A DNA stretch of 41,717 bases from Candidatus Daviesbacteria bacterium RIFCSPLOWO2_01_FULL_37_10 (GTDB taxonomy: Bacteria; Patescibacteriota; Microgenomatia; Daviesbacterales; UBA10151). The notes under the pieces are model-generated. The model searched no databases. It worked only from the letters and a program-made list of their open reading frames with translations, and had not been told where the DNA came from. Shown in pieces: positions 3,527 through 18,695 of this stretch; the stretch's first letter is position 1; the number at the start of each line of letters is the position of its first letter. Position numbers and translations under genes: made by a program. Location: positions 1 through 41,717 of the forward strand of contig MFDK01000004.1 in assembly GCA_001776865.1 (NCBI GenBank), read 5' to 3'.

Positions 3527-4168
3527 TTATATTTCCACCTCTCCTTTGTTTATCCAAACTTTCACTCCAACGAACCCTGACTTTGTCAGTGCCGGGAAAG
3601 ATGCAAAATCTATATCCTGCCTTAGAGTATGCAGCGGCATAACTCCAGAAGCCTTCCATTCTCTTCTTGCAATTTCTGCCCCGTTTATTCTTCCGGATAC
3701 AACCACCCGTACTCCTTTTGCGCCTGCTCTCATAACTCTATCTATTGTTTGGTTCATGACTCTTTGCGCAGGAAGCCTTCTTATAAGCTGCTCAGCTACT
3801 CCCTGAGCAACCAGGTATGCTGATAAATCAACTGAACGTATATCCTGAGGAGCAATCTCCAAAGCATTTTCACTTTTTATCTTTAGCTCTTTTAATAAAA
3901 ACTTCTTCAACTCTGTAAGACCTGTCCCTCCTCTGCCTATTAAAACTCCGGGTCTTGCTACAAAAATAAAAACTTTGAGTTTATTAATTGATCTTTCTAT
4001 TTCAATATTTGCAACTCCTGCAGTTTTTAATTTTTTCATCAAAATTTCCCTGATTTTTAAATCTTCTCTTAAAGTTTCCTTGTATTTTCTGCTGTCTGCA
4101 AACCACCTGGATTTCCAGGGTGCAGCACCTCCTATTCTAAGCCCTACCGGATGTATCTTCTGTCCCAT
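3527..4168 (-). CDS. rpsC: 30S ribosomal protein S3
   Basis: [14 protein letters not shown]... has the KH and S3-C signature. Confidence 0.97.
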
Positions 4169-7973: not shown

Positions 7974-7998
7974 GTCATCCTGAACGAAGCGAAGGATC
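7974..7998 (+). repeat. GTCAT-headed hairpin repeat
   Basis: Reads gtcatcctgaacgaagcgaaggatc in the rpsJ-rplC spacer. It is preceded by gtgacgagc, the tail motif of the ruvX-flanking elements. Confidence 0.75.
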
Positions 7999-8026
7999 TC
8001 TCAGCTTGTCTAATCCGCCTAGCGGA

Positions 8027-8344
8027 TTACATCTTAACCTCAATATCAACCCCTGCTGGAAGTTCTATGTGCATTAGGGAATCTATTGTTTTTTGTGTAG
8101 GTTCAATAATATCTAAAACTCTTTTGTGAGTTTTTATTTCAAAAGCTTCTCTTGCATCTTTATCTGTATGAGGAGAAGTTAAAACTGTAATTCTTTCAGT
8201 TTTCGTAGGAAGGGGAATAGGGCCAAGAATTTTTGCTCCGGTTCGGAGCGCCACATCAAGTAACTGCTCGCATGTCGAATCGAGTACTCTATGATCATAA
8301 CTTTTTAGTCTTACGCGTATTCTACCGCGTGTTGCTGTAGCCAT
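8027..8344 (-). CDS. rpsJ: 30S ribosomal protein S10
   Basis: ...IRVRLKSYDHRVLDSTCEQLLDVALRTGAKILGPIPLPTK... is canonical S10. An 8-bp hairpin, taatccgcctagcggatta (8011-8029), overlaps its stop codon. Confidence 0.97.
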   Translation of the reverse strand: MATATRGRIRVRLKSYDHRVLDSTCEQLLDVALRTGAKILGPIPLPTKTERITVLTSPHTDKDAREAFEIKTHKRVLDIIEPTQKTIDSLMHIELPAGVDIEVKM

Positions 8345-8390: not shown

Positions 8391-8541
8391 GTCATTCTGG
8401 CACCGACAGAGTCGAGTGTTCTCGACGGAGTCGGGACTTGTCCAGAATCTTTATCTGTCATCTCGAACGAAGTGAGGAATCTCAAGACTAATCTAGAGAT
8501 TCCTCCTTGCCCGCCTCTGGCGGGGCTGCGCTCGGAATGAC
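8391..8541. repeat. Cluster of nested GTCAT hairpin repeats bounded by GTCAT...ATGAC
   Basis: At 8391-8449, gtcattctgg[...gtcgagtgttctcgac...]ccagaatc has a hairpin nested inside it. At 8457-8481 lies gtcatctcgaacgaagtgaggaatc. At 8498-8541, gattcctcc[..cccgcctctggcggg..]ctcggaatgac is inverted and carries a nested GC hairpin. Confidence 0.85.
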
Positions 8542-8543
8542 AG

Positions 8544-8831
8544 TTAAGATGTTTGTGCATCTTGTCTTGGTTCTACTGAGCCTACTTCATCTCCACGAAG
8601 CCTCTCTATAAATCCTTCATTAGATACTTGGTAAGTATGTAGTTGCTCTTTCTCATCTTTCTCAGTATAAAATATCACTGGTTCACCATTAAAATTGAAA
8701 ACAAATTTTGAAAGTCCTGCTATACGCTCTCCACCTCGAGAAAATATTAAATGCGTAATTTCATCTAATTCTTCGATCGTAATTTCCCTTTTTGGGTTAG
8801 TCACTGGTTGTTCAGAATTGCTTTCCGGCAT
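8544..8831 (-). CDS. Hypothetical 95-aa protein inserted between tuf and rpsJ
   Basis: Clean ORF with an ATG at 8829-8831, preceded by gaaaggaaaat (SD-like). I recognise no family. The 3' end abuts repeat DNA. Confidence 0.5.
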   Translation of the reverse strand: MPESNSEQPVTNPKREITIEELDEITHLIFSRGGERIAGLSKFVFNFNGEPVIFYTEKDEKEQLHTYQVSNEGFIERLRGDEVGSVEPRQDAQTS

Positions 8832-8870: not shown

Positions 8871-8929
8871 GTCATTCCGAACTTGTTTCGGAATCTTACT
8901 GTCAGATCCTGAATCAAGTTCAGGATGAC
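8871..8929. repeat. Composite GTCAT...ATGAC hairpin element
   Basis: gtcattccgaacttgtttcggaatc (8871-8895) and gatcctgaatcaagttcaggatgac (8905-8929). It is a near copy of the element at 4638-4704. Confidence 0.85.
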
Positions 8930-8937
8930 GATAAGGC

Positions 8938-10122
8938 TCATGCTATTATCTTAGTTATCACTCCAGCTCCAACTGTTTTTCCGCCTTCTCGAATTGCAAA
9001 CCTTAAACCTTCTTCCATAGCAACCGGTGTAATTAACTTTCCTGTAATTTTTACTGTATCTCCCGGCATTGCCATCTCTGTTCCTTCAGGAAGAGTAACT
9101 TCTCCTGTAACATCTGTTGTCCTAACATAAAATTGCGGTCTGTATCCTTTGAAAAATGGCGTGTGTCTTCCGCCCTCTTCTTTGCTCAAAACATAAATTT
9201 CTGCTTCAAACTCGGCGTGAGGAGTAATTGAACCGGGCTTTGCAAGAACCTGACCGCGTTCTATATCATCTTTTTCAATTCCCCGAAGTAAAATTCCTGC
9301 ATTATCTCCGGCTTCTCCCTGATCCAAGAGTTTGTGAAACATTTCAATTCCTGTAACAACGCTTTTCTTTGTTGGTCTAATTCCAACAATCTCTATTTCT
9401 TCGTTAACTTTTACAACTCCCCGTTCAATTCTACCAGTTGCCACTGTACCGCGTCCTTTAATAGAGAAAACGTCCTCAACAGCCATTAAAAACGGCTTAT
9501 CTTTATCTCTTACAGGAGTTGGAATCCACTCATCAACTTTTGCCATCAAATCTTCAATGCTCTTTATAGCCTCGGCATCACCTTCTAATGCTTTTTTAGC
9601 AGAACCACGGATAATTGGGCTTTGTGGATCATATTCATATTTTTTAAGGAGGTCTCTTACTTCTTCTTCAACTAAATCAAGGAGTTCAGGATCGTCAACC
9701 ATGTCGCATTTATTAAGGTAAACTACAATCGCAGGAACTCCAACCTGGCGAGCCAAAAGAAGGTGTTCACGAGTTTGAGGCATTGGACCATCTGGTGCGG
9801 AAACTACAAGTATTGCTCCGTCAGTTTGTGCAGCACCAGTAATCATGTTTTTAATATAGTCTGCGTGACCTGGCATATCTATATGTGCATAGTGACGGGT
9901 TTCTGTTTCATATTCCTGATGTGAAATATTAATCGTAATTCCTCGGGCTTTTTCTTCAGGAGCATTGTCAATTTGATCAACAGATCGCTTTTCTGCCAAC
10001 CCTTTAGAAGCCAGTACACTGGTAATAGCTGCAGTCAAGGTTGTTTTACCATGGTCAACATGACCCATGGTTCCAACGTTTACGTGTGGTTTACTTCTAT
10101 CGTACTTTTTAACGTCTGCCAT
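8938..10122 (-). CDS. tuf: Elongation factor Tu
   Basis: From the ATG at 10120-10122: [34 protein letters not shown]..., 394 aa, canonical EF-Tu. The 59 upstream codons of ORF 8938..10299 are read-through of a fusA relic. Confidence 0.97.
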
Positions 10123-10231
10123 ATAAGCTTTCCCGAGCAAAGCTTGCGAGCTTCGCTCTAAAAAACCAGCCCTATCCAGACTGGATATATAAAATCTTAC
10201 TATAAATCTTACAATATTGCAAGCACCAAAT

Positions 10232-10281
10232 TTACCATCCAACTCAACCTGTAAATCCGAGGATTCTACGATTTTGGAAAC
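10232..10281 (-). other. Decayed duplicate of the fusA 3' end, including the stop position
   Basis: ttaccatccaactcaacctgtaaatccgaggattctacgattttggaaac compared with fusA 11035-11085 ttacctttcaactctgcctgtaaatccggaggtttctactattttagcagt. By hand alignment 40/50 positions are identical with one 1-nt gap. The relic translates as [15 protein letters not shown]; fusA ends [15 protein letters not shown]. Confidence 0.8.
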
Positions 10282-10282
10282 T

Positions 10283-10828
10283 TCACTCTGAAGCACCAAG
10301 CAAATCTTTTTTCGCTACTATTTTATATGTAGAACAATTTTTTGAAAGTGCTTGGCTAATAAAATTTTCAAATCCCACATAAATAACTTTTTTCTGTTCT
10401 TCTTTCGCTGTTTTTATAGCTGGCAATAAATCTGTATCTGAGGAAAATAAATAACATTTTTCATATTCATTTTTAATCGCGCCGCGAACCATATCAACTG
10501 CAATCTGAACATCCACCCCCTTCTCATGGTAAGAACCGTCGGAGAATAGGAGAAAACCCAGCTTTATTTCGATATCTAATTTTCTTAAATTTGAGAATAA
10601 TGACTGTTGATTTGCATATAAACTTGCAGATTTCTTATTACCAGGATATTTTCTTATTTCACCAACATAATAGATTATCTGCAAATCTTTCGTTTTTTCT
10701 TTAGTTATAGAATGGACAAATTTTCTATAGTCAAGCCTCATTAGGTGAGTTTGGGGTAAGAGTTTCTTAACCTTATTATAGAAATTACTTCCATCAATCT
10801 GAACTAAAATTTTTTTATTCATCCTCAT
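10283..10828 (-). CDS. NYN-domain (LabA/DUF88-like) putative RNase
   Basis: The pattern ...[11 protein letters not shown]...[14 protein letters not shown]...[13 protein letters not shown]... matches the NYN/LabA family (DG.N, KGVD, sDtD). Confidence 0.85.
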
Positions 10829-10841
10829 ATTTTAAAAGAAA

Positions 10842-10866
10842 CCCCCGGGTCGTAAAGAACCGGGGG
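10842..10866 (-). promoter_or_regulatory. Leader hairpin plus U tract 13 nt before the NYN start (attenuator- or terminator-like)
   Basis: The minus strand reads cccccgg-ttctttacgac-ccggggg (7 GC pairs) followed by tttcttttaaaat and then the ATG. Confidence 0.45.
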
Positions 10867-10879
10867 GAGTTAGATTTTA

Positions 10880-10908
10880 ATAATATCAGATAATATTGTA
10901 TTTGTCAA
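10880..10908 (-). promoter_or_regulatory. Sigma70-type promoter for the NYN gene
   Basis: The minus strand reads TTGACA (10908-10903), a 17-nt spacer aatacaatattatctga, then TATTAT (10885-10880). Confidence 0.5.
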
Positions 10909-10943
10909 AAAAAATCCTGCGAAGACTTTTCGGTGTCGCAGGA
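10907..10943 (-). terminator. Intrinsic terminator after fusA
   Basis: The minus strand reads tcctgcga-caccgaaaagtct-tcgcagga (8-bp stem) followed directly by T8. Confidence 0.6.
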
Positions 10944-11034
10944 GATTTAAGTATTTATATACTATCACACTATTACTTGAAAATGCAAGTAGGGGATATT
11001 TTGCCAAATTTGAGCCTAAATAGTATTAATTATC

Positions 11035-13179
11035 TTACCTTTCAACTCTGCCTGTAAATCCGGAGGTTTCTACTATTTTAGCAGTAATATTACTTGGCAC
11101 TGGTTCATAGTGATCTGCTTCCATGTATGAAGTTGCCCTACCTTGAGACATACTCCTTATATTTGTAACATATCCATGCATTTCTGCTAAAGGAACTAAA
11201 GCTATAACCACCTTGGAATTTCCACGGGATTCGGAAGACAGAATTTGGGCTCTTTTTGCGCTCAAATCCCCAATAATATCCCCTAAAAATTCCTCCGGAG
11301 TAGTAACCTCCACCTTCATTATCGGTTCAAGTAAAATCATGTCCGCACGAGCTGCCGCATCGGAAAGTCCGAGTGACCCGGCTATTTTAAAGGCCATCTC
11401 AGAGGAGTCAACATCATGAAATGATCCATCATAAACTGTAACTTTTATATCCGTAACCGGGTATCCTGCTAAAATTCCAGTATCTTCTTTCTCTATTACA
11501 CCTTTCTCAATTGGTGCAATGAATTCTCTTGGAATAGCACCTCCAACAATTTCTGAAACAAATTCCCTTCCTTGCCCGCGTGGTAATGGCTCAATCTTGA
11601 GTAAACAGTGTCCGTATTGACCGCGACCTCCGGTTTGCCTGATATATTTTCCCTCACCACGAGCTTCCTTTGTAATAGTCTCTTTATATGCAACTTGCGG
11701 CTGGCCAACATTGGCCTCAACCTTAAACTCCCTTTTCATCCGGTCAACCAAAACTTCCAGCTGCAGCTCACCCATTCCGGCTATTATTGTTTGACCGGTT
11801 TCGTGATCAGATTTTACTCTAAAGGTTGGATCTTCCTCAGATAAACGACCAAGAGCTAAACCCAGCTTTTCCTGATCAGACTTTGTTTTAGGTTCAATTG
11901 CAAGGGATATAACCGGTTCCGGAAAAGAAATTGACTCCAAAACTACCGGATTTCCCTCATCACAAAGAGTGTTTCCGGTTATAGTATCTTTAAGTCCAAC
12001 TGCTGCTACAATTTCACCGGCATATGCCTCATCAATTTCTTCTCTATCGTTAGCATGCATAAGAAGAAGTCTACCAACCCGTTCCTTAATTTGTTTATTA
12101 ACGTTATAAACATACGTCCCGGATTTCAAAGTTCCAGCATAAACTCTAATATAGGTTAGCTTTCCAACGTGTGGATCAACTTGAATTTTGAAAGCAAGCG
12201 CGGCCATCGGAGCTTCTTTATCCCCATTGTTAATAACAATCTCTTCTTCAGGATTACTTGGATTTTTCCCGGTAATTGAAGTAATATCCTGCGGCGAAGG
12301 TAAATATTCAACAACACTATCGAGCATGGGCTGAACACCTTTGTTACGAAGTGAAGATCCGGCAAGTACTGGTACGATTTTATTGTCAATAACTGCCCGA
12401 CGAAGAGCTTTTTTCAGATCCTCAACTGAGATTTCCTCTCCACCCAGGTATTTTTCCATTAGCACGTCATCGGTTCCAGAAATCTCCTCCACCAGCTTAT
12501 CTCTATACTTATCTACATCTGAGGTCATATCTGCTGGAATATCTGCTTCTTTGAAATCAGCTCCAGTTTCTGATCCCTCCCATATAAATGCTTTCTTAGT
12601 TAATAAATCTATAACACCGCGAAAATCATTTTCTTTCCCAATTGGCAAGTTGTATGCAACTGCATTTGCGCCGAGTCTATCTCTAGCAGACTGTATTGTC
12701 CCATGAAAATCTGCGCCAACTACATCCATTTTGTTTGCAAAAGCAATAAGTGGAACTTTATATTTATTAGCCTGTCTCCATACTGTTTCTGTTTGAGATT
12801 GAACCCCTGATGCAGAGTCTAGAACAATTACACCTCCGTCCAAAACACGCAGAGATCTCTCGACTTCAGCTGTAAAATCAACGTGTCCCGGGGTATCAAT
12901 TAAGTTAATCCTAATTTCAGCGTCTTTAAAAGAACCACTCTTTGGAGTCCAGAAGGTAGTAATAGCAGCAGAAACAATTGTAATTCCACGCTCTTTTTCC
13001 TGCTCCATCCAGTCAGTTGTAGTTGTTCCCTCATCAATATCGCCAATTTTATAGGTTCGACCGGTGTAAAATAAAATTCGCTCGGTTGTTGTGGTTTTAC
13101 CTGCATCAATGTGCGCAATAATACCTATATTTCTAATTCTATCCAGAGGAAAATCCCGTTTAGTTTTTTGTATAGCCAT
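11035..13179 (-). CDS. fusA: Elongation factor G
   Basis: [41 protein letters not shown]... is 714 aa and canonical EF-G. Confidence 0.97.
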
Positions 13180-13180
13180 A

Positions 13181-13408
13181 TTACCCTAGCTCCTCCTCCA
13201 GTTTTTTTATTGTTTTTCTAGCATTAGCAATCTGCGCAGAAGCAACTTGTGCCTCCTCGGTTCTAAGTTCATACCCTGCATTTTCTTTTAAATCACCCTC
13301 ACGGGCTGCTTCCCCGCGAAGCAGCATCAGCTCATCAAATCTTTTTACAAGCTGACTTTCCTGTTTCTTCCAAAATTCTAATTTTTCTTTCAATGTTTTC
13401 TTATCCAT
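13181..13408 (-). CDS. Stand-alone GreA/GreB N-terminal coiled-coil domain protein (75 aa)
   Basis: ...[46 protein letters not shown] compares with E. coli GreA ...[36 protein letters not shown]. The acidic tip residues (D..E) are retained and there is no C-terminal globular domain. The stop is 1 nt before the fusA ATG. Confidence 0.7.
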
Positions 13409-13438
13409 AAAAAAATAGCCTCCCTCAAACGGGGGAGG
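13409..13438 (-). terminator. Hairpin plus T7 between the 171-aa ORF and the GreA-N-like gene
   Basis: The minus strand reads cctccc-ccgtttga-gggagg, then cta, then ttttttt, and then directly the ATG at 13408. Confidence 0.4.
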
Positions 13439-13472
13439 AGTATGTATATACTACAAAATCCGAACCTAAAAG

Positions 13473-13988
13473 TCAAATCACAATTCCCTGGCTTATCAAA
13501 AATTGATTAAAACTAAGCGCGCTTTGATATAAATCCTCATAATCATCAGGTATTGGAGAATTTTCAAGAATGCAAGGGTATAAATTTTTCCACCTTCTTT
13601 GAAAATTTCTATTTATTAACCCATGAGTAAGTATTGAGGCTTGATTGTGTTCTAACTCTTCACTTAGGCGATGTTTAAATTGAGCATTAATATAATCCTC
13701 CGGATCTAAATCTTTTAGCTCAATGATTAATCTTTTTCCATTTTCATCAGCGCAGCCTTGATGTTCAAGCAAAATATGCGCAACACTGTGTATTGCCCGC
13801 ATCATTTTTCTGCCTGGAGTAAGACTAGCACTTAAATACAGTTTTTTCCTGTAGTTTGGAGGAGACACTTCAAGAACAGCATCCAAATAATCTCTTAACT
13901 CTTCCGTTACTATATTTATTCCATAATAAGGCTTAAGATAATACTCTTCCAACTTTCTCAAAGTAGAATACTCAGTTTCTTGAAGCAT
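13473..13988 (-). CDS. Hypothetical 171-aa protein (possible degenerate ImmA/IrrE-like motif)
   Basis: Clean ORF between rpsG and fusA. The only hint is RKMMRAIHSVAHILLEH, which resembles the HExxH helix of DUF955/ImmA peptidases with the Glu replaced by Ser. Confidence 0.55.
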   Translation of the reverse strand: MLQETEYSTLRKLEEYYLKPYYGINIVTEELRDYLDAVLEVSPPNYRKKLYLSASLTPGRKMMRAIHSVAHILLEHQGCADENGKRLIIELKDLDPEDYINAQFKHRLSEELEHNQASILTHGLINRNFQRRWKNLYPCILENSPIPDDYEDLYQSALSFNQFLISQGIVI

Positions 13989-14038: not shown

Positions 14039-14515
14039 CTACCACCTGAAGTGGGCGAAGGCACGATTGGCATTTGCTACTTTTTGGATTTCTTCTTTTT
14101 TCTTCATGGCAACTCCAGTACCACCAGATGCCTCCATAATTTCTGCTGCAAGTTTTTTATCAAAACTGTGATAATCTTTATTTGGCCTTGTTTGCGCACC
14201 AGTTATAATCCACCTGATTGCCAAAGCTTCTTTTCTATCTCCTCTTACCTCAGATGGAACCTGATACGATGCTCCCCCAACTCTTCTTGGCTTAACTTCC
14301 ATTTTCGGGGAAACATTCGTAATTGCTGTTTCAAAAACTTTTAAAGGATCCTGATTAGATTCCTCTTTAATTTGATCCAGCGCTCCGTAAACCAGTCTTT
14401 GTGCTATACTTTTTTTTCCGTCAATCATCACGTAGTTTATGAATTTTTGCAAAAGTCTGGATCCATAAATAGGATCCGGAGTAATTATTCTTCTTGGTGC
14501 TTTTTTACTTCTCAT
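14039..14515 (-). CDS. rpsG: 30S ribosomal protein S7
   Basis: MRSKKAPRRIITPDPIYGSRLLQKFINYVMIDGKKSIAQRLVY... is canonical S7. Confidence 0.97.
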   Translation of the reverse strand: MRSKKAPRRIITPDPIYGSRLLQKFINYVMIDGKKSIAQRLVYGALDQIKEESNQDPLKVFETAITNVSPKMEVKPRRVGGASYQVPSEVRGDRKEALAIRWIITGAQTRPNKDYHSFDKKLAAEIMEASGGTGVAMKKKEEIQKVANANRAFAHFRW

Positions 14516-14524
14516 TTTTTCCTT

Positions 14525-15001
14525 TTATACTGGTGGAGCTGCATCCGGCGTCGGTGCAGCAGGTGCTGCTGCAGATCTAGGCGCAGCTCCTCCGCCGCCT
14601 TTCTTAGTTCCATATCTGCTTCTCCCCTGCTTTCTTCCAACTACACCTTCCATATCAAGTTTTCCACGGATTATATGATATTTAACTCCAGGAAGGTCTT
14701 TTACTCTACCCCCTCTTACTAAAACTATTCCGTGCTCTGCAAGAGAGTGTCCAATACCCTGAATATATGCAGTAACCTCAGTCCTGTTTGAGAGTCTTAC
14801 CCTGGCAACTTTTCTAAGAGCTGAATTCGGTTTTTTAGGAGTCATAGTTTTTACCAAAGTTACAACACCCCGTTTTTGAGGGTTAAAAGTCTGTTTGTAT
14901 CTCCGATCTTTAGCGTTAAAGCTTTTTCTAAGAGCTGTTGCCTTAATCTTTTTACTAACTTTTGACCTTCCTTTTCTAACTAACTGATTAATTGTCGGCA
15001 T
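14525..15001 (-). CDS. rpsL: 30S ribosomal protein S12 with Gly/Ala/Pro-rich C-terminal tail
   Basis: From the ATG at 14999-15001: [15 protein letters not shown]..., canonical S12. The extra tail [26 protein letters not shown] is encoded by a GC-rich stretch at 14525-14600. Confidence 0.95.
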
Positions 15002-15005
15002 ATTT

Positions 15006-18000
15006 TTACCCTTCCATCCTTGCTCTTTCCGGACTGGTTGGAATGAGTCTCCCGATGATAACATTTTCTTTAAGCCCTATCAACTTATCTACCTTTCCTG
15101 CAATCGCCGCATCTGAAAGAATTGTTGTAGTTTCCTGGAATGAAGCTGCTGAAAGGAAACTTTCTGTCTGAAGGCTTGCACGCGTTATACCTAAAATAAC
15201 AACTTCCGCTGTAGCCGGATCTCCTCCGCTTGCTAAAACTCTTTGGTTTTCTTCTTCAAACCTTAGTTTATCTACTATTTCCCCTGGTAAAAGATTGGTG
15301 TTACCTTGAGATTCAATCCTTACTTTATCAGACATTTTTCGAACTATTATTTCAAAATATCTTTCATTTAAAGGAACCCCCTGACCTTCATAGACGCTTC
15401 TCACTTCATCAACAATATATCTTTGTGCCTCTCTTAAGCCCTTCACCCGTAATATATCTTTTATATCCATATGACCCCCTGAAAGTTGAGTGCCTGCTGA
15501 AATAAGCTGACCATCTTCAACAAGGAGTTGAGCGGTAACAGGAATTGCATATTCCCTTTCTTCATGAGGCTTTTGAGTTGTACGTACTCTAAGCTTGATT
15601 CCTGTATCTGTTTCAATAACTGATACTTTACCTGCAATTTCAGCAAGCGGAGATGTCATCTTCGGAGATCTTGCCTCAAAAAGCTCTTCCACCCTTGGAA
15701 GACCTGTTGTAATATCTAAACCGACAATTCCCCCTGTATGGAAAGTACGCATTGTAAGCTGGGTTCCAGGTTCACCAATGCTTTGAGCGGAGATTACACC
15801 AACCGGAACACCAATTTTTACAGGAGCTCTTGTTGTAAGATCCAATCCGAAACATGCGCTGCAAATACCGTATTTCGCAATACATGCCAGGGGAGTTCTT
15901 ACAAACACTTTTTCTACTCCAATCTTCATTAAATCCTGTACAAACCCGTCACTTAGATAGTCATTTGCGGGAGCTACAACTTTTTTCGTCTTTGGGTTCA
16001 CTACTTTTTCAATAACTCTTCTTCCAAGCAGCTTTGAAATTCCGGCAATAGGGTTATCCTTTGGCACATCAAGCCATATTCCCTCATTTGTCCCGCAATC
16101 CTCAAGTCTTACAATTACATCATGCGCTACATCCACAAGCCTTCTGGTTAAATATCCTGCATCAGCAGTTTTCAAAGCCTTATCAGCAACTCCTTTCCTT
16201 GCACCCCTACACGACGTAAAATATTCAAAAACAGATAATCCTTCTCTGTAATTTGATTTTGTCGGAAGTTCAACTATTTTTCCTGTAGGGTCAGTCGAGA
16301 GTCCCCTCATAGCGGAAAGTTGTTTTGCCTGATCCCTGGAACCACGGGCTCCTGCTTCAACAAGCATTCTTATCGGATTAAACGAGCCAAGATGCTCCCA
16401 GGTTGCGTTTGCAAGCTCTTCAGTTGTTTTAATCCAGACTCCCTGGCTAAGTTGCGATTTCTCTTCAGAAGTAATAAAGCCCTTATCTAAATTGGATTCA
16501 ATTTCAGATATTTCTTTTTCTGCTTTCTTAATATATTCAGGTTTATCCGGTACAATTTTTGCATCATATATGCCTATTGATACACCTGCCATAGTAGCAC
16601 CCCAAAAACCGGTTGCTTTTATTTTGTCGATCAAATTTGCCACCTCATCTTTAGTAAAAGCTTCCATTGCCCTAAGTACAATATCTCTTATGGTTACACC
16701 CCTGATAGGAATATTCAAGAAACGCATTTGCTCCGGTAATACTTGATTAAATAGAATCCTACCAACTGATGTTTCAATTAGCTCTTTTTCTCTATAAATT
16801 TTGATTTTTTGCCGGATAGATACCAGCCCTAACTTAAAATTTAAAATTGCTTCTTCCTCACTCATAAAAAATTTCAAGTCTTTAGCTTCTGCATCCGGAA
16901 TAGTTGTCAAATAGTAACAGCCAAGTGCCATTTCGCGGTTTGGAATAGTTAGCGGCTGACCATTAGCAGGTCCGAATATATTTTCTTTTGCCATCATCAG
17001 ATCTTTTGCTTCTTGTTGAGCTTTTCCTGAAAGCGGAACATGTATAGCCATCTGATCGCCATCAAAATCAGCATTGAATCCTGCACAAACGCAAGGGTGG
17101 ATGGCGATTGCATTACCATCTACAAGTACCGGGAAAAACGCCTGCATTCCGAGTCTGTGCAGAGTCGGAGCACGGTTTATTAAAATCGGGTGTCCTTCTA
17201 TAATTTCTTCCAAAATATCCCAAACCTCAGCAGGTTTGTGCTCCAAAACATTTTTTGCGCCTTTAACATTTGCAGCTAAACCTCTATTTATTACTTCACG
17301 GAGTACAAATGGCTTAAACATCTCAAGAGCCATTTCTTTCGGAAGTCCTACCTGATCAAGCCTTAAGTTTGGACCAACTACTATAACTGATCTTCCGGAA
17401 TAATCAACTCTTTTCCCTAAAAGATTCTGCCTGAATCTTCCCTGTTTTCCTCTTAACATATCAGACAGTGAGCGCAGCGTGTGGCCTACTGCCACTCTTC
17501 TAGAAGCTCTTCCTGCTGAATCGATCAAAGCGTCTACCGCTTCCTGCAGCATCCTTTTTTCATTTCTTAAGATTATCTCCGGTGCGCCTAAATTAATTAA
17601 CCTATTAAGCCTGTTATTTCTATTTATTACCCTGCGGTATAAATCATTTAAGTCTGAGGTTGCAAATCTGCCGCCGGGAAGTTGTACCATAGGTCTTAGA
17701 TCCGGAGGGAGCACTGGTAAAACACGAAGTATTATACACTCAGGGGATATGGATGCAGACCTCATACCTTCTATAATTCGAAGTCTTTTTGTTGCTTTAA
17801 TATGCCTTTGACCTGTAGATTTTCTGACTTCTTCCCGAAGATGTGAAGAGACTTTATCCAAATCCAGTTTTTTTAAAACTTCCAGGAGACTTTCTGCCCC
17901 CATTCCAATTGTCAAAAAGTTTGCTACACCATATTCATTTAATTTATTAAATTCATCCTCAACAAGGAGCTTAAGAGGTACTACACTCTTTACCAAATCT

Positions 18001-18695
18001 GTTACTGCCTTAAAAATTTCCTCCAGCTGACCTTGCTCAACTACAAAGTTGTCGCGAAGTTTTTGTATTTCATGTCTGTTTTTGAGTTCAAGCTCGGACA
18101 CGAGGAGTTCAAATCTTTCTTTTTCCTTATTTGTTTTCTTCTTTAAAGCTGAAAGCTCTGTTTTAAGAGTATTGTCTAAAAGTTTAATTTGTTTTTCAAG
18201 GTTTTCTTTTTGGGTTTCTATTTTTGCTTGCAGATCTTTTTCCAGCTTCTGGAGGGCTTTTGTTTTTTCTTCAGAAGAAACATCTATTACTAAAAAGGAT
18301 GCAAAATAAATAACCGCTTCAAGGTTTTTAGGAGAAATATCCAGAATTAGAGATAACTTTGAAGGAGCACCTTTAACAAACCAGGTATGGGCAACAGGAC
18401 AAGCCAGGGTTATATGTCCCATCCTTTCGCGTCTCACTCTTGACTGAGTTACTTCAACTCCACATTTATCACAAATAACACCTCTATACCTTATTCTTTT
18501 ATATTTTCCGCAATAACATTCATAATCCTTTGTAGGACCAAAAATATTTTCACTAAAAAGTCCGTCCTTTTCAGCTTTAAGTGTTCGATAATTTATGGTT
18601 TCAGGCTTAGTAACCTCACCAAAAGACCATCCGCGAATTTCTTCCGGGTTTGCAGCAGTAATTTTTAGTGCTTCAAAATCAAGTAGGTCATTCAT
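15006..18695 (-). CDS. rpoC: DNA-directed RNA polymerase subunit beta'
   Basis: 1229 aa. It has the zinc-binding CxC...CxxC N-terminus and the [14 protein letters not shown] catalytic loop. Confidence 0.98.

Follow-up and report, generated by a model that had tools for sequence, protein, structure and literature searches.

How did a gene for a putative nuclease come to stand between fusA and tuf, which form a single operon in Escherichia coli, and what does the surrounding DNA preserve of that event? The question is raised by a 41,717-nt stretch of the genome of Candidatus Daviesbacteria bacterium RIFCSPLOWO2_01_FULL_37_10 (assembly GCA_001776865.1, contig MFDK01000004.1), the whole of which is called the window here. 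All locus genes discussed are on the minus strand, in the transcription order S12, S7, two small open reading frames (ORFs), fusA, an ORF of the NYN family, tuf, a 95-aa ORF and S10 (Table 1). An earlier note on this DNA had read the arrangement as an NYN cassette splitting a universally adjacent gene pair, with a relic of fusA left in front of tuf. The analysis confirms an insertion scar, well resolved and situated at a hot spot of the str region that is particular to this lineage, together with an artefact in the annotation of tuf. The best named matches of EF-G, the fusA product, are from Candidatus Daviesbacteria, and the same arrangement, with an identical locus, is found in public contigs of at least three independent samples (L001-L003), which excludes an assembly artefact.

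A decayed copy of the fusA 3' end in front of tuf

Local alignment of fusA 11035-11079 with 10232-10275 gives 45 columns with 38 matches, 6 mismatches and one 1-nt gap. The alignment score of 53 compares with a mean of 20.0 (standard deviation 2.4, maximum 40) in 500 shuffles, and an independent repeat search returned the same pair (10232-10259 and 11035-11062, 86% identity). Both copies end exactly at TAA, the relic stop being 10232-10234. Alignment in codon register lengthens the relic to a GTG at 10294-10296, so that it covers ~65 nt (46/65 identical), the last ~20 codons. The relic is damaged by a 1-nt deletion and by a TGA within it. Putting back the missing base gives KIVES(S)GFTG*VGW*, where TGA takes the place of an Arg codon. 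The segment is a decayed duplicate of the last ~20 codons and stop of fusA, as the earlier note had recognised, along with the single deletion and the terminal stop. The relic has no stable fold (z=-0.7).

The NYN gene runs into this relic. The relic contains, in its 5' part and in another frame, the NYN stop codon (10283-10285) and the four codons before it (GASE); this stretch read from relic-derived sequence spans 10283-10297. The tail of the NYN product, …KKDLLGASE, leaves the family consensus …KKxQILKFxK right where the relic begins. The contact between gene and relic described earlier is therefore real, but it is an overlap and not mere abutting.

The ancestral junction and its variants in relatives

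Relatives were fetched through exact EF-G look-up. In two of them fusA is followed directly by tuf with no cargo, after a 73-nt spacer in L175 (EF-G 90% identical) and a 205-nt spacer in L177 (89%). The L175 spacer consists of the fusA stop, a TTGCAT-17-TATATT promoter, a CCAGC..GCTGG hairpin and tuf. From the stop onward it reads TAA, then ATTGGTGCTTGCAT...CCAGC..GCTGG-TTTT-ATG, which is collinear with the relic stop and tuf leader of the window. The letters at the junction are …GGATTTACAGGCAGAGTAGAAAGATAA / ATTGGTGCTTGCATTTTG…TATATT…CCAGC…GCTGGTTTTCAA ATG in L175 and …GGATTTACAGGTTGAGTTGGATGGTAA / ATTTGGTGCTTGCAATATTG…TAAGAT…CCAGTCTGGATAGGGCTGGTTTTTT…ATG in the window, where 109 nt separate the relic stop from the tuf ATG. 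This collinearity identifies the relic as a former fusA tail still joined to its ancestral spacer. The two marks of a duplicated-tail scar are thus present: a displaced, non-functional 3' end collinear with the ancestral downstream sequence (by comparison with L175), and an empty site in relatives (L175 and L177, with neither cargo nor relic). The comparison with related fusA-tuf spacers, which the earlier note had proposed as a check, bears out its ancestral order of fusA stop, short spacer and tuf.

Other relatives carry different genes at the same place. In L172 and L173 (EF-G 94%), fusA is followed by ORFs of 162, 66, 41 and 120 aa, an HTH_17/PIN_3 pair and tuf; in L174 (92%), by ORFs of 99, 91 and 41 aa and tuf. 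P0126 (90%) has ORFs of 184, 65, 41 and 83 aa after fusA, and P0127 (90%) has ORFs of 128 and 79 aa followed by tuf. The more distant L012 (80%) has a histidine kinase after fusA and no tuf within 4 kb. PADLOC and Pfam searches of the relatives' cargo ORFs found no families.

Relics of the fusA tail are also present in L172 (45 nt, 78% identity) and L174 (29 nt, 86%), in both cases directly after a homologous 41-aa ORF. The L174 relic is immediately upstream of the tuf promoter, and that of L172 is parted from it by more cargo. In L172, the HTH_17/PIN_3 toxin-antitoxin pair is flanked by a 49-nt direct repeat (9555-9603 and 10380-10428, 88% identity); on the left, the repeat is formed by the 3' end of the 120-aa gene that comes before the pair. 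The signature is that of the fusA relic, so this kind of duplicated-tail scar has arisen at least twice.

Among GTDB loci labelled as Candidate Phyla Radiation (CPR) with tuf downstream of fusA, 11 of 14 have gaps of 309-3127 nt, whereas the gap is below 250 nt in 24 of 31 loci from other bacteria. The description of the pair as universally adjacent is therefore wrong for this group. In this clade of Daviesbacteria the fusA-tuf junction is a hot spot for insertions, and the window holds a real rearrangement scar at a place where relatives bear other inserted genes, yet not an extraordinary one.

Cargo junctions in three of the genomes share a 16-nt motif, AAATTTGGCAAAATAT. It occurs once in the window, at 10996-11011 (minus strand) just past fusA, three times in L172 (about 8776-8787, 9576-9587 and 10401-10412) and once in L174 (8728); it is found nowhere else in 1.3 Mb of fetched sequence, save for look-alikes with 1-2 mismatches. 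The motif opens with 9 nt that are similar to the beginning of the ancestral spacer (TAAATTTGG…). A role as a general promoter or UP element was considered for the motif and rejected, since the window has one copy and 3-mismatch matches occur at chance level.

A predicted promoter and stem-loop upstream of tuf

The predicted tuf promoter begins ~10 nt past the relic stop. Its geometry, TTGCA[T/A], 17 nt and TAnnAT, is common to the window, L172, L174, L175 and L177. A CCAG…CTGG hairpin lies 8-10 nt past the -10 box in all five lineages, the window copy having a predicted energy of -9.5 kcal/mol. The window has an extra hairpin, GAGCGAAGCU-CGCA-AGCUUUGCUC (10135-10158; -15.1 kcal/mol, z=-3.0), that is absent from L172, L174 and L175. 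From these elements we infer that tuf has a promoter of its own, giving an mRNA with a stem-loop at its 5' end. An own promoter would explain why DNA inserted upstream is tolerated, as tuf would not be silenced by it.

A secondary tufA promoter inside or after fusA was reportedly described by Zengel and Lindahl in the E. coli str operon. In both cases tuf would be transcribable independently of the upstream str genes. The promoter proposed here differs in lying just past the fusA stop, in being deduced from conservation across five lineages and in being followed by a conserved 5' hairpin.

A probable order of events

The fusA-tuf boundary is probably a tolerated insertion site, and there is good reason for confidence that an insertion at this boundary left 10232-10296 as its scar. 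In the proposed course of events, the ancestral layout would have had a tuf promoter starting ~8 nt past the fusA stop, followed by the 5' stem-loop, so that DNA arriving upstream of this promoter would not silence tuf as long as fusA kept a complete 3' end. An insertion would have duplicated the last ~20 fusA codons; the upstream copy of the tail would have kept its function, and the copy before the tuf promoter would have decayed by frameshift and internal stop. The relic would have been inherited from an ancestor carrying other small genes, which the NYN module would later have replaced between the junction motif (10996-11011) and the relic. The present cargo would be a self-contained NYN/LabA-like nuclease module with one or two promoters, a leader hairpin and a coding sequence, whose last four codons and stop would now be supplied by relic sequence.

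The age of the relic relative to the NYN gene was assessed by comparing the relics of the window, L172 and L174 in codon register. All three have GA(A/G) at an Ile codon that is AT(T/A/C) in functional fusA (6 functional DNAs), and Glu at this position is found in 0 of 120 EF-G homologs. The window and L174 relics also share GAAGTT where functional copies have ATTACT or similar; no 3-nt indel is shared in this alignment. In a neighbor-joining tree of EF-G, the window and L172 group together, then with L174, and this group joins P0126 and P0127; all of these bear cargo, and L175 and L177 fall outside. The shared changes, together with the nesting of the window among cargo-bearing relatives, suggest that the relic may predate the NYN gene. 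A relic older than the arrival of NYN is most likely, a reading that we favor at little better than even confidence from the comparison of these sequences, and one old relic with later cargo turnover is the most parsimonious and moderately supported account.

Several points weigh against this account. The step that makes the relic older rests on a single-gene neighbor-joining tree without support values, and the shared derived bases number only 2-3, with a roughly estimated chance probability of ~0.04. The window relic may reach codon -21, further 5' than those of L172 and L174, which would fit an independent event. The relic comparison covers the window, L172 and L174, as DNA of P0126 and P0127 was lacking. 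The promoters are all proposed on consensus and conservation only, as is the notion of a stabilising 5' hairpin. The physical mechanism is a proposed one, and this genome is covered by 41.7 kb only.

In a less likely alternative, that of the earlier note, a single event would have placed ~750 bp with the NYN gene into an intact fusA-tuf pair in this lineage and made the relic at the same time. The NYN frame running into the relic, with a tail that departs from consensus exactly there as an NYN-made junction would, favors NYN-bearing DNA having created the junction itself, and the window relic seems to extend slightly past those of L172 and L174. The relic could also be young, as the two copies are 84% identical over 45 nt, compared with only 57% identity when the third codon positions of fusA in the window are set against those of its closest relative. 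This identity is a weak clock, however, because the fusA tail is unusually conserved between lineages (89-91% in the last bin of a sliding-identity comparison) and its codons are the AT-rich preferred ones. A single event is further opposed by the relatives nested around the window, where a relic with the shared Ile-to-Glu codon change occupies this same place beside other cargo, and by the junction motif left of the NYN module, which is common to the cargo arrays of L172 and L174. The claim of the earlier note that NYN was placed here later survives in part: NYN is elsewhere in every other lineage examined, so its position in this genome is derived, but homologous relics stand beside other cargo in relatives, so that the NYN insertion need not be what made the relic.

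Three routes can be proposed for the mechanism. In the first, a tandem duplication would have joined the NYN 3' end to fusA codon -20 at its novel joint, and the copy in between would then have been lost, the classic duplication-deletion way to move a gene. The second would be recombination of linear or circular DNA bearing a fusA-tail arm. The third would be site-specific integration of the e14/icd type, with a recombinase encoded elsewhere; the recurring tail duplications and the junction motif keep this route alive at low probability. Direct repeats of the kind that attL and attR would form are present in imperfect form here (84% over 45 nt) and around the toxin-antitoxin pair of L172 (49 nt, 88%), and duplication plus deletion would give the same pattern. 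NYN is the only gene of the insert. No integrase or transposase was found by Pfam in most long window ORFs outside the ribosomal-protein and RNA-polymerase genes, and no recombinase is among the called genes of the relatives' cargo. Sliding identity of fusA against L172, L174 and L175 shows no drop near the tail and no recombination breakpoint.

In E. coli, e14 and phage 21 integrate in the 3' end of icd and supply a replacement tail; they encode an integrase and are tens of kilobases long. The present locus is like them in that the gene is intact, its 3' end is duplicated and the displaced copy beyond the insert decays. It differs in that the insert is ~0.75 kb and has no recombinase, and in that either of the two tails may be the original.

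The third route, in which the junction would be the attachment site of a site-specific system and small cassettes mimicking the fusA tail would integrate into the fusA 3' end, replace its tail and displace the original, mobilised by a recombinase encoded elsewhere, is improbable. Direct repeats of 29-49 nt do flank each cargo block, and in every case the upstream gene supplies the left copy with its 3' end; the 16-nt motif marks cargo junctions in three genomes, and close relatives carry different cargo. Against this, no integrase, transposase or excisionase was found in the scanned ORFs of the window or in the relatives' cargo, the HTH_17 gene pairing with PIN_3 as toxin-antitoxin. The fusA tail lacks the identity drop that imported sequence would show, the repeats are imperfect and vary in extent, and the NYN module occurs in ~60 other contexts without fusA-like flanks. 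It is equally doubtful that the junction is a docking site for trans-mobilised cassettes, exchanged at copies of upstream-gene tails and AAATTTGGCAAAATAT, with NYN and its leader RNA moving as a block around Microgenomates. If this were true, NYN, the toxin-antitoxin pair and tiny membrane ORFs would be modules of an array that holds no recombinase. The term cassette, in the sense of a mobile element, is unsupported by what was found here: no integrase or transposase in the scanned ORFs of the window, and a conserved family with its own promoter and leader.

Integrons offer a related comparison. Shared features are small, mostly promoter-poor gene arrays, a recurring junction sequence and a single chromosomal site. 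The window differs in having no integrase or attI, a 16-nt motif that is not an attC-like structure (it forms no attC-like imperfect palindrome), an NYN gene with its own promoters and repeats that are tails of upstream genes. Of the integron hallmarks IntI, attI and attC, the integrase is absent and the motif is not attC-like.

It is very unlikely that the relic represents a regulatory element conserved in the tuf leader, with a likeness to fusA that is coincidental or convergent. In the window as in L174 the tuf promoter follows directly on the relic, and a core, GGATTTACAGG, is invariant in all functional fusA copies and two of three relics; yet L175 and L177 have a real fusA coding tail at the relic position, L172 has further cargo between relic and promoter, and the relic lacks a stable fold while gathering a frameshift and stops. 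The case that the earlier note had named as fatal to its proposal, a relic-like tuf leader unrelated to fusA, is thus contradicted by L175 and L177. The core consists of preferred AT-rich codons. The variant idea that the fusA tail is under nucleotide constraint as an upstream element of tuf is unsupported, since GGATTTACAGG is also present, with one change, in L012, where no tuf follows within 4 kb.

That the long tuf ORF (8938-10299, 453 aa) encodes an EF-Tu with a genuine 59-residue N-terminal extension has next to nothing in its favor: it is open from TTG 10299, and gene callers applied to the identical ENA contigs chose a 452-aa form overlapping NYN, but the extension is out-of-frame fusA tail plus promoter and hairpin sequence, it overlaps NYN, the GTP_EFTU domain starts only at residue 70, and the EF-Tu proteins of relatives (392-394 aa) begin MA(D/E/G).. 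at the equivalent of ATG 10122 and have no counterpart to it. The 59-codon extension is an ORF-calling artefact, arising because relic and leader chance to be open in the tuf frame. Its fusA-derived nature, asserted earlier, agrees with the alignment score and with EF-Tu starting at ATG 10122.

The NYN gene family

The NYN ORF matches PF01936, the profile suggested earlier as a check, with 68.5 bits (cut-off 24.2; E=1.2e-18), residues 6-168 covering profile positions 1-141 of 145. Its first in-frame ATG is at 10828, and homologs start at the second, 10822. An AlphaFold model (predicted local distance difference test 80.7) has 2QIP as its best PDB fold match (E=3.3e-8, TM 0.64/0.71); a sequence search of the PDB with the NYN profile found no match, and the fold search alone succeeded. 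D12, D106, D112, D131 and D133 are invariant in 16 homologs. The protein thus combines a PIN-like alpha/beta fold with conserved acidic residues, and from its family membership it is a putative RNase. Its match to the PADLOC candidate HEC-09 (1e-14) stems from nothing more than the NYN domain common to both. Domain match, fold match and invariant acidic residues are shared with LabA-like NYN proteins (PF01936; 2QIP, VPA0982). The subfamily differs from these in its unusual conservation and a dedicated leader RNA, and TIGR00288 (NCBIfam) is matched only at residues 104-174, with 31.1 bits, far below its cut-off of 178.45.

More than 1300 homologs were found, with 65-75% identity across the Gottesman-, Woese-, Woyke- and WWE3 lineages. 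EF-G is 67-69% identical between the same lineages, so that the NYN family is about as conserved, which fits an important conserved gene better than typical mobile cargo. The context of the gene varies over the ~60 contexts noted above, and it lies between fusA and tuf in 0 of 80 metagenome loci. In one lineage (L006, L096-L098; about 5001-5537 in L006) it is divergently upstream of fusA. S12 and S7 are not upstream of fusA in the L006 lineage. Two independent NYN-fusA adjacencies among ~60 contexts exceed our chance expectation, a post-hoc observation. The nearest non-identical NYN protein is 75% identical, although EF-G relatives reach 94%. The closest relatives seem to have no close NYN ortholog in the database, which could mean acquisition from outside the clade or merely missing assemblies.

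A conserved leader RNA upstream of NYN

The promoter scan placed a strong sigma-70-like promoter at 10908-10880, TTGACA-17-(TG)TATTAT, with 11/12 matches and a TG extension. Further upstream, the element at 10907-10989 contains a promoter-like TTGCAT-18-TAGTAT, read by eye and not called by the tool, and a hairpin, CTCCTGCGA..TCGCAGGA, that runs into U8 (-12.5 kcal/mol, z=-2.9). L125 has an almost identical hairpin upstream of NYN, and an equivalent leader of promoter, hairpin and U-run precedes distant homologs. The U8 hairpin may terminate fusA transcripts too, as far as we infer from its position.

Every NYN homolog is preceded by a conserved element made up of (G)CUAAyU, then a GC-rich hairpin, then a U-run. 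In the window, the leader has a 10-bp GC-rich hairpin at 10842-10867 (-16.8 kcal/mol) and ends 5 nt before ATG 10828. Over 31 distinct sequences, 91% of the cells of the leader hairpin are paired, with G-C to A-U swaps at three pairs; slid registers are paired in only 42-70%. Double-sided changes number 19, against 4.8±1.7 in shuffles. A covariance model of the leader (R1) scores 64.3 bits at 10834-10886, its sole match in the window plus 83 non-NYN loci (809 kb). In 84 NYN loci it gives 68 matches with E <= 0.02, all but two just 5' of NYN on the same strand. With these predicted promoters and this leader, the module brought its own expression signals. Rfam 15 returned nothing at gathering score in the window, and a permissive search (E<=10, 10000-11200) gave at best anti-hemB with 21 bits (gathering score 49.5) and snoR64a with ~21 (45); in five NYN loci Rfam found tRNAs only.

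Further features accompany the leader. It occurs across Microgenomates and beyond (L004-L176, just 5' of each NYN gene). In many loci it is the 3' half of a ~70-nt unit made of a promoter, a variable hairpin, a UUGAUUUGCUAAyU linker and the leader hairpin, after which a second promoter-like site abuts the NYN start. In L137 (656-707, minus strand) and L145 (2174-2225, minus strand), the model matches the opposite strand immediately downstream of the NYN gene, and these matches may mark a second, convergent NYN unit. A second conserved non-coding block, after a TATAAT-like box, reads ACCGAAUGAUCyyuGUGGUGAAAGUA…GGAGCGAAUGUUG…CCACAAGGAUCGA. It is ~100-250 nt upstream of NYN in L094, L095 (~3700-3830), L110, L111 and L112, and has inserts in L114, L132 and L139; Rfam at gathering score found tRNAs only in five such loci. 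The block looks like another small structured RNA beside the NYN unit.

The surrounding locus

The features of the locus are listed in Table 1.

Table 1. Features of the fusA-tuf region and its neighbors in the window, in transcription order
Feature	Coordinates	Strand	Evidence or remark
S12	14525-15064	-	179-aa ORF
S7	14039-14515	-	
Small ORF, 171 aa	13473-13988	-	
Small ORF, 75 aa, weak GreA_GreB_N match	13181-13408	-	
fusA (EF-G, 714 aa), intact	11035-13179	-	All EF-G Pfam domains; relatives 94-100% identical
Functional copy of the duplicated tail, last 66 nt of fusA	11035-11100	-	Tail alignment
Junction segment directly after the fusA stop, with motif AAATTTGGCAAAATAT	10990-11034	-	
NYN-associated upstream element: promoter-like site, hairpin, U8	10907-10989	-	
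Sigma-70-like promoter before the NYN leader	10880-10908	-	Promoter scan
NYN leader, conserved: CUAACU, hairpin, U-rich tail	10834-10886	-	Covariation
NYN/LabA-like gene, 181 aa	10283-10828	-	Pfam, fold model
fusA 3'-end relic, non-coding	10232-10296	-	Alignments, repeat search
Spurious 59-codon N-terminal extension of the tuf ORF	10123-10299	-	Crosses relic and tuf leader
Predicted tuf promoter, TTGCAA-17-TAAGAT	10191-10222	-	Consensus reading; unlisted by promoter scan
tuf 5'-leader hairpin, CCAG..CTGG then U6	10160-10184	-	Kept in five lineages
Extra tuf-leader hairpin, 10 bp	10135-10158	-	This genome only, compared with L172, L174 and L175
tuf (EF-Tu, 394 aa), true start	8938-10122	-	79-95% identity to relatives over residues 1-394
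ORF, 95 aa, no family match	8544-8831	-	
S10	8027-8344	-	

Upstream, the S12 ORF overlaps the end of rpoC (15006-18695, minus strand) by 59 nt. It has 179 aa, compared with 152-159 aa in relatives, and sequences from other phyla align only from residue ~20, so that its start call may be over-extended too. The contents of the gap between S7 and fusA differ between relatives: a Trp-repressor-like protein in L174, a histidine kinase in P0126 and P0127, and in L175 a phosphoribosyltransferase on the other strand, with a GreA_N-like small ORF kept just before fusA. This gap (13181-13988) looks like a second variable spot of the str region.

Downstream, between tuf and S10, L174 has a 94-aa ORF at the position of the 95-aa ORF of the window (position only was compared), and L175 has none. 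A short palindromic repeat (GTCATCCTGAACGAAGCGAAGGATCTC and variants) is intergenic around S10 and the 95-aa ORF, at 7974-8000, 8457-8483 and 8906-8926; palindromes resembling it occur in the cargo spacers of L172 and L174. Between S10 and L3, L174 (the 92% relative) has a 167-aa ORF and a GIY-YIG gene (11375-12261), another sign that this clade admits insertions in its S10 region.

Comparison with known insertions and significance

Brandis and co-workers (PMC8046335, PMC6735719) document small insertions into the rpoBC-str-S10-spc cluster of Gammaproteobacteria and Bacilli. Most of those described lie between operons (rpoBC and str, or str and S10) and one is inside the rpoBC operon (PMC8046335, PMC6735719). 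The present case is like them in that a few genes stand in the most conserved cluster, at a boundary where the downstream unit keeps its expression. It differs in the fusA/tuf site, the CPR lineage, the duplicated-tail scar and cargo that varies between close relatives. Insertions into the conserved cluster also loosen later synteny (PMC8046335), which L012, with tuf not within 4 kb of fusA, would fit.

The locus is a clean natural example of a broken "fixed" gene pair, and relatives display its empty site, its scar and alternative cargos. It also exposes a systematic annotation error in public assemblies, where EF-Tu is called 58 residues too long and overlaps NYN. As a by-product, a strongly conserved family of putative NYN nucleases with a covarying leader hairpin was found; the leader is a candidate RNA element for autoregulation or stabilisation, and this conserved leader RNA and the junction cargo array are the parts worth following. 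For CPR bacteria, the findings point to a str/S10 region that is porous, and would be so because tuf has a promoter of its own.

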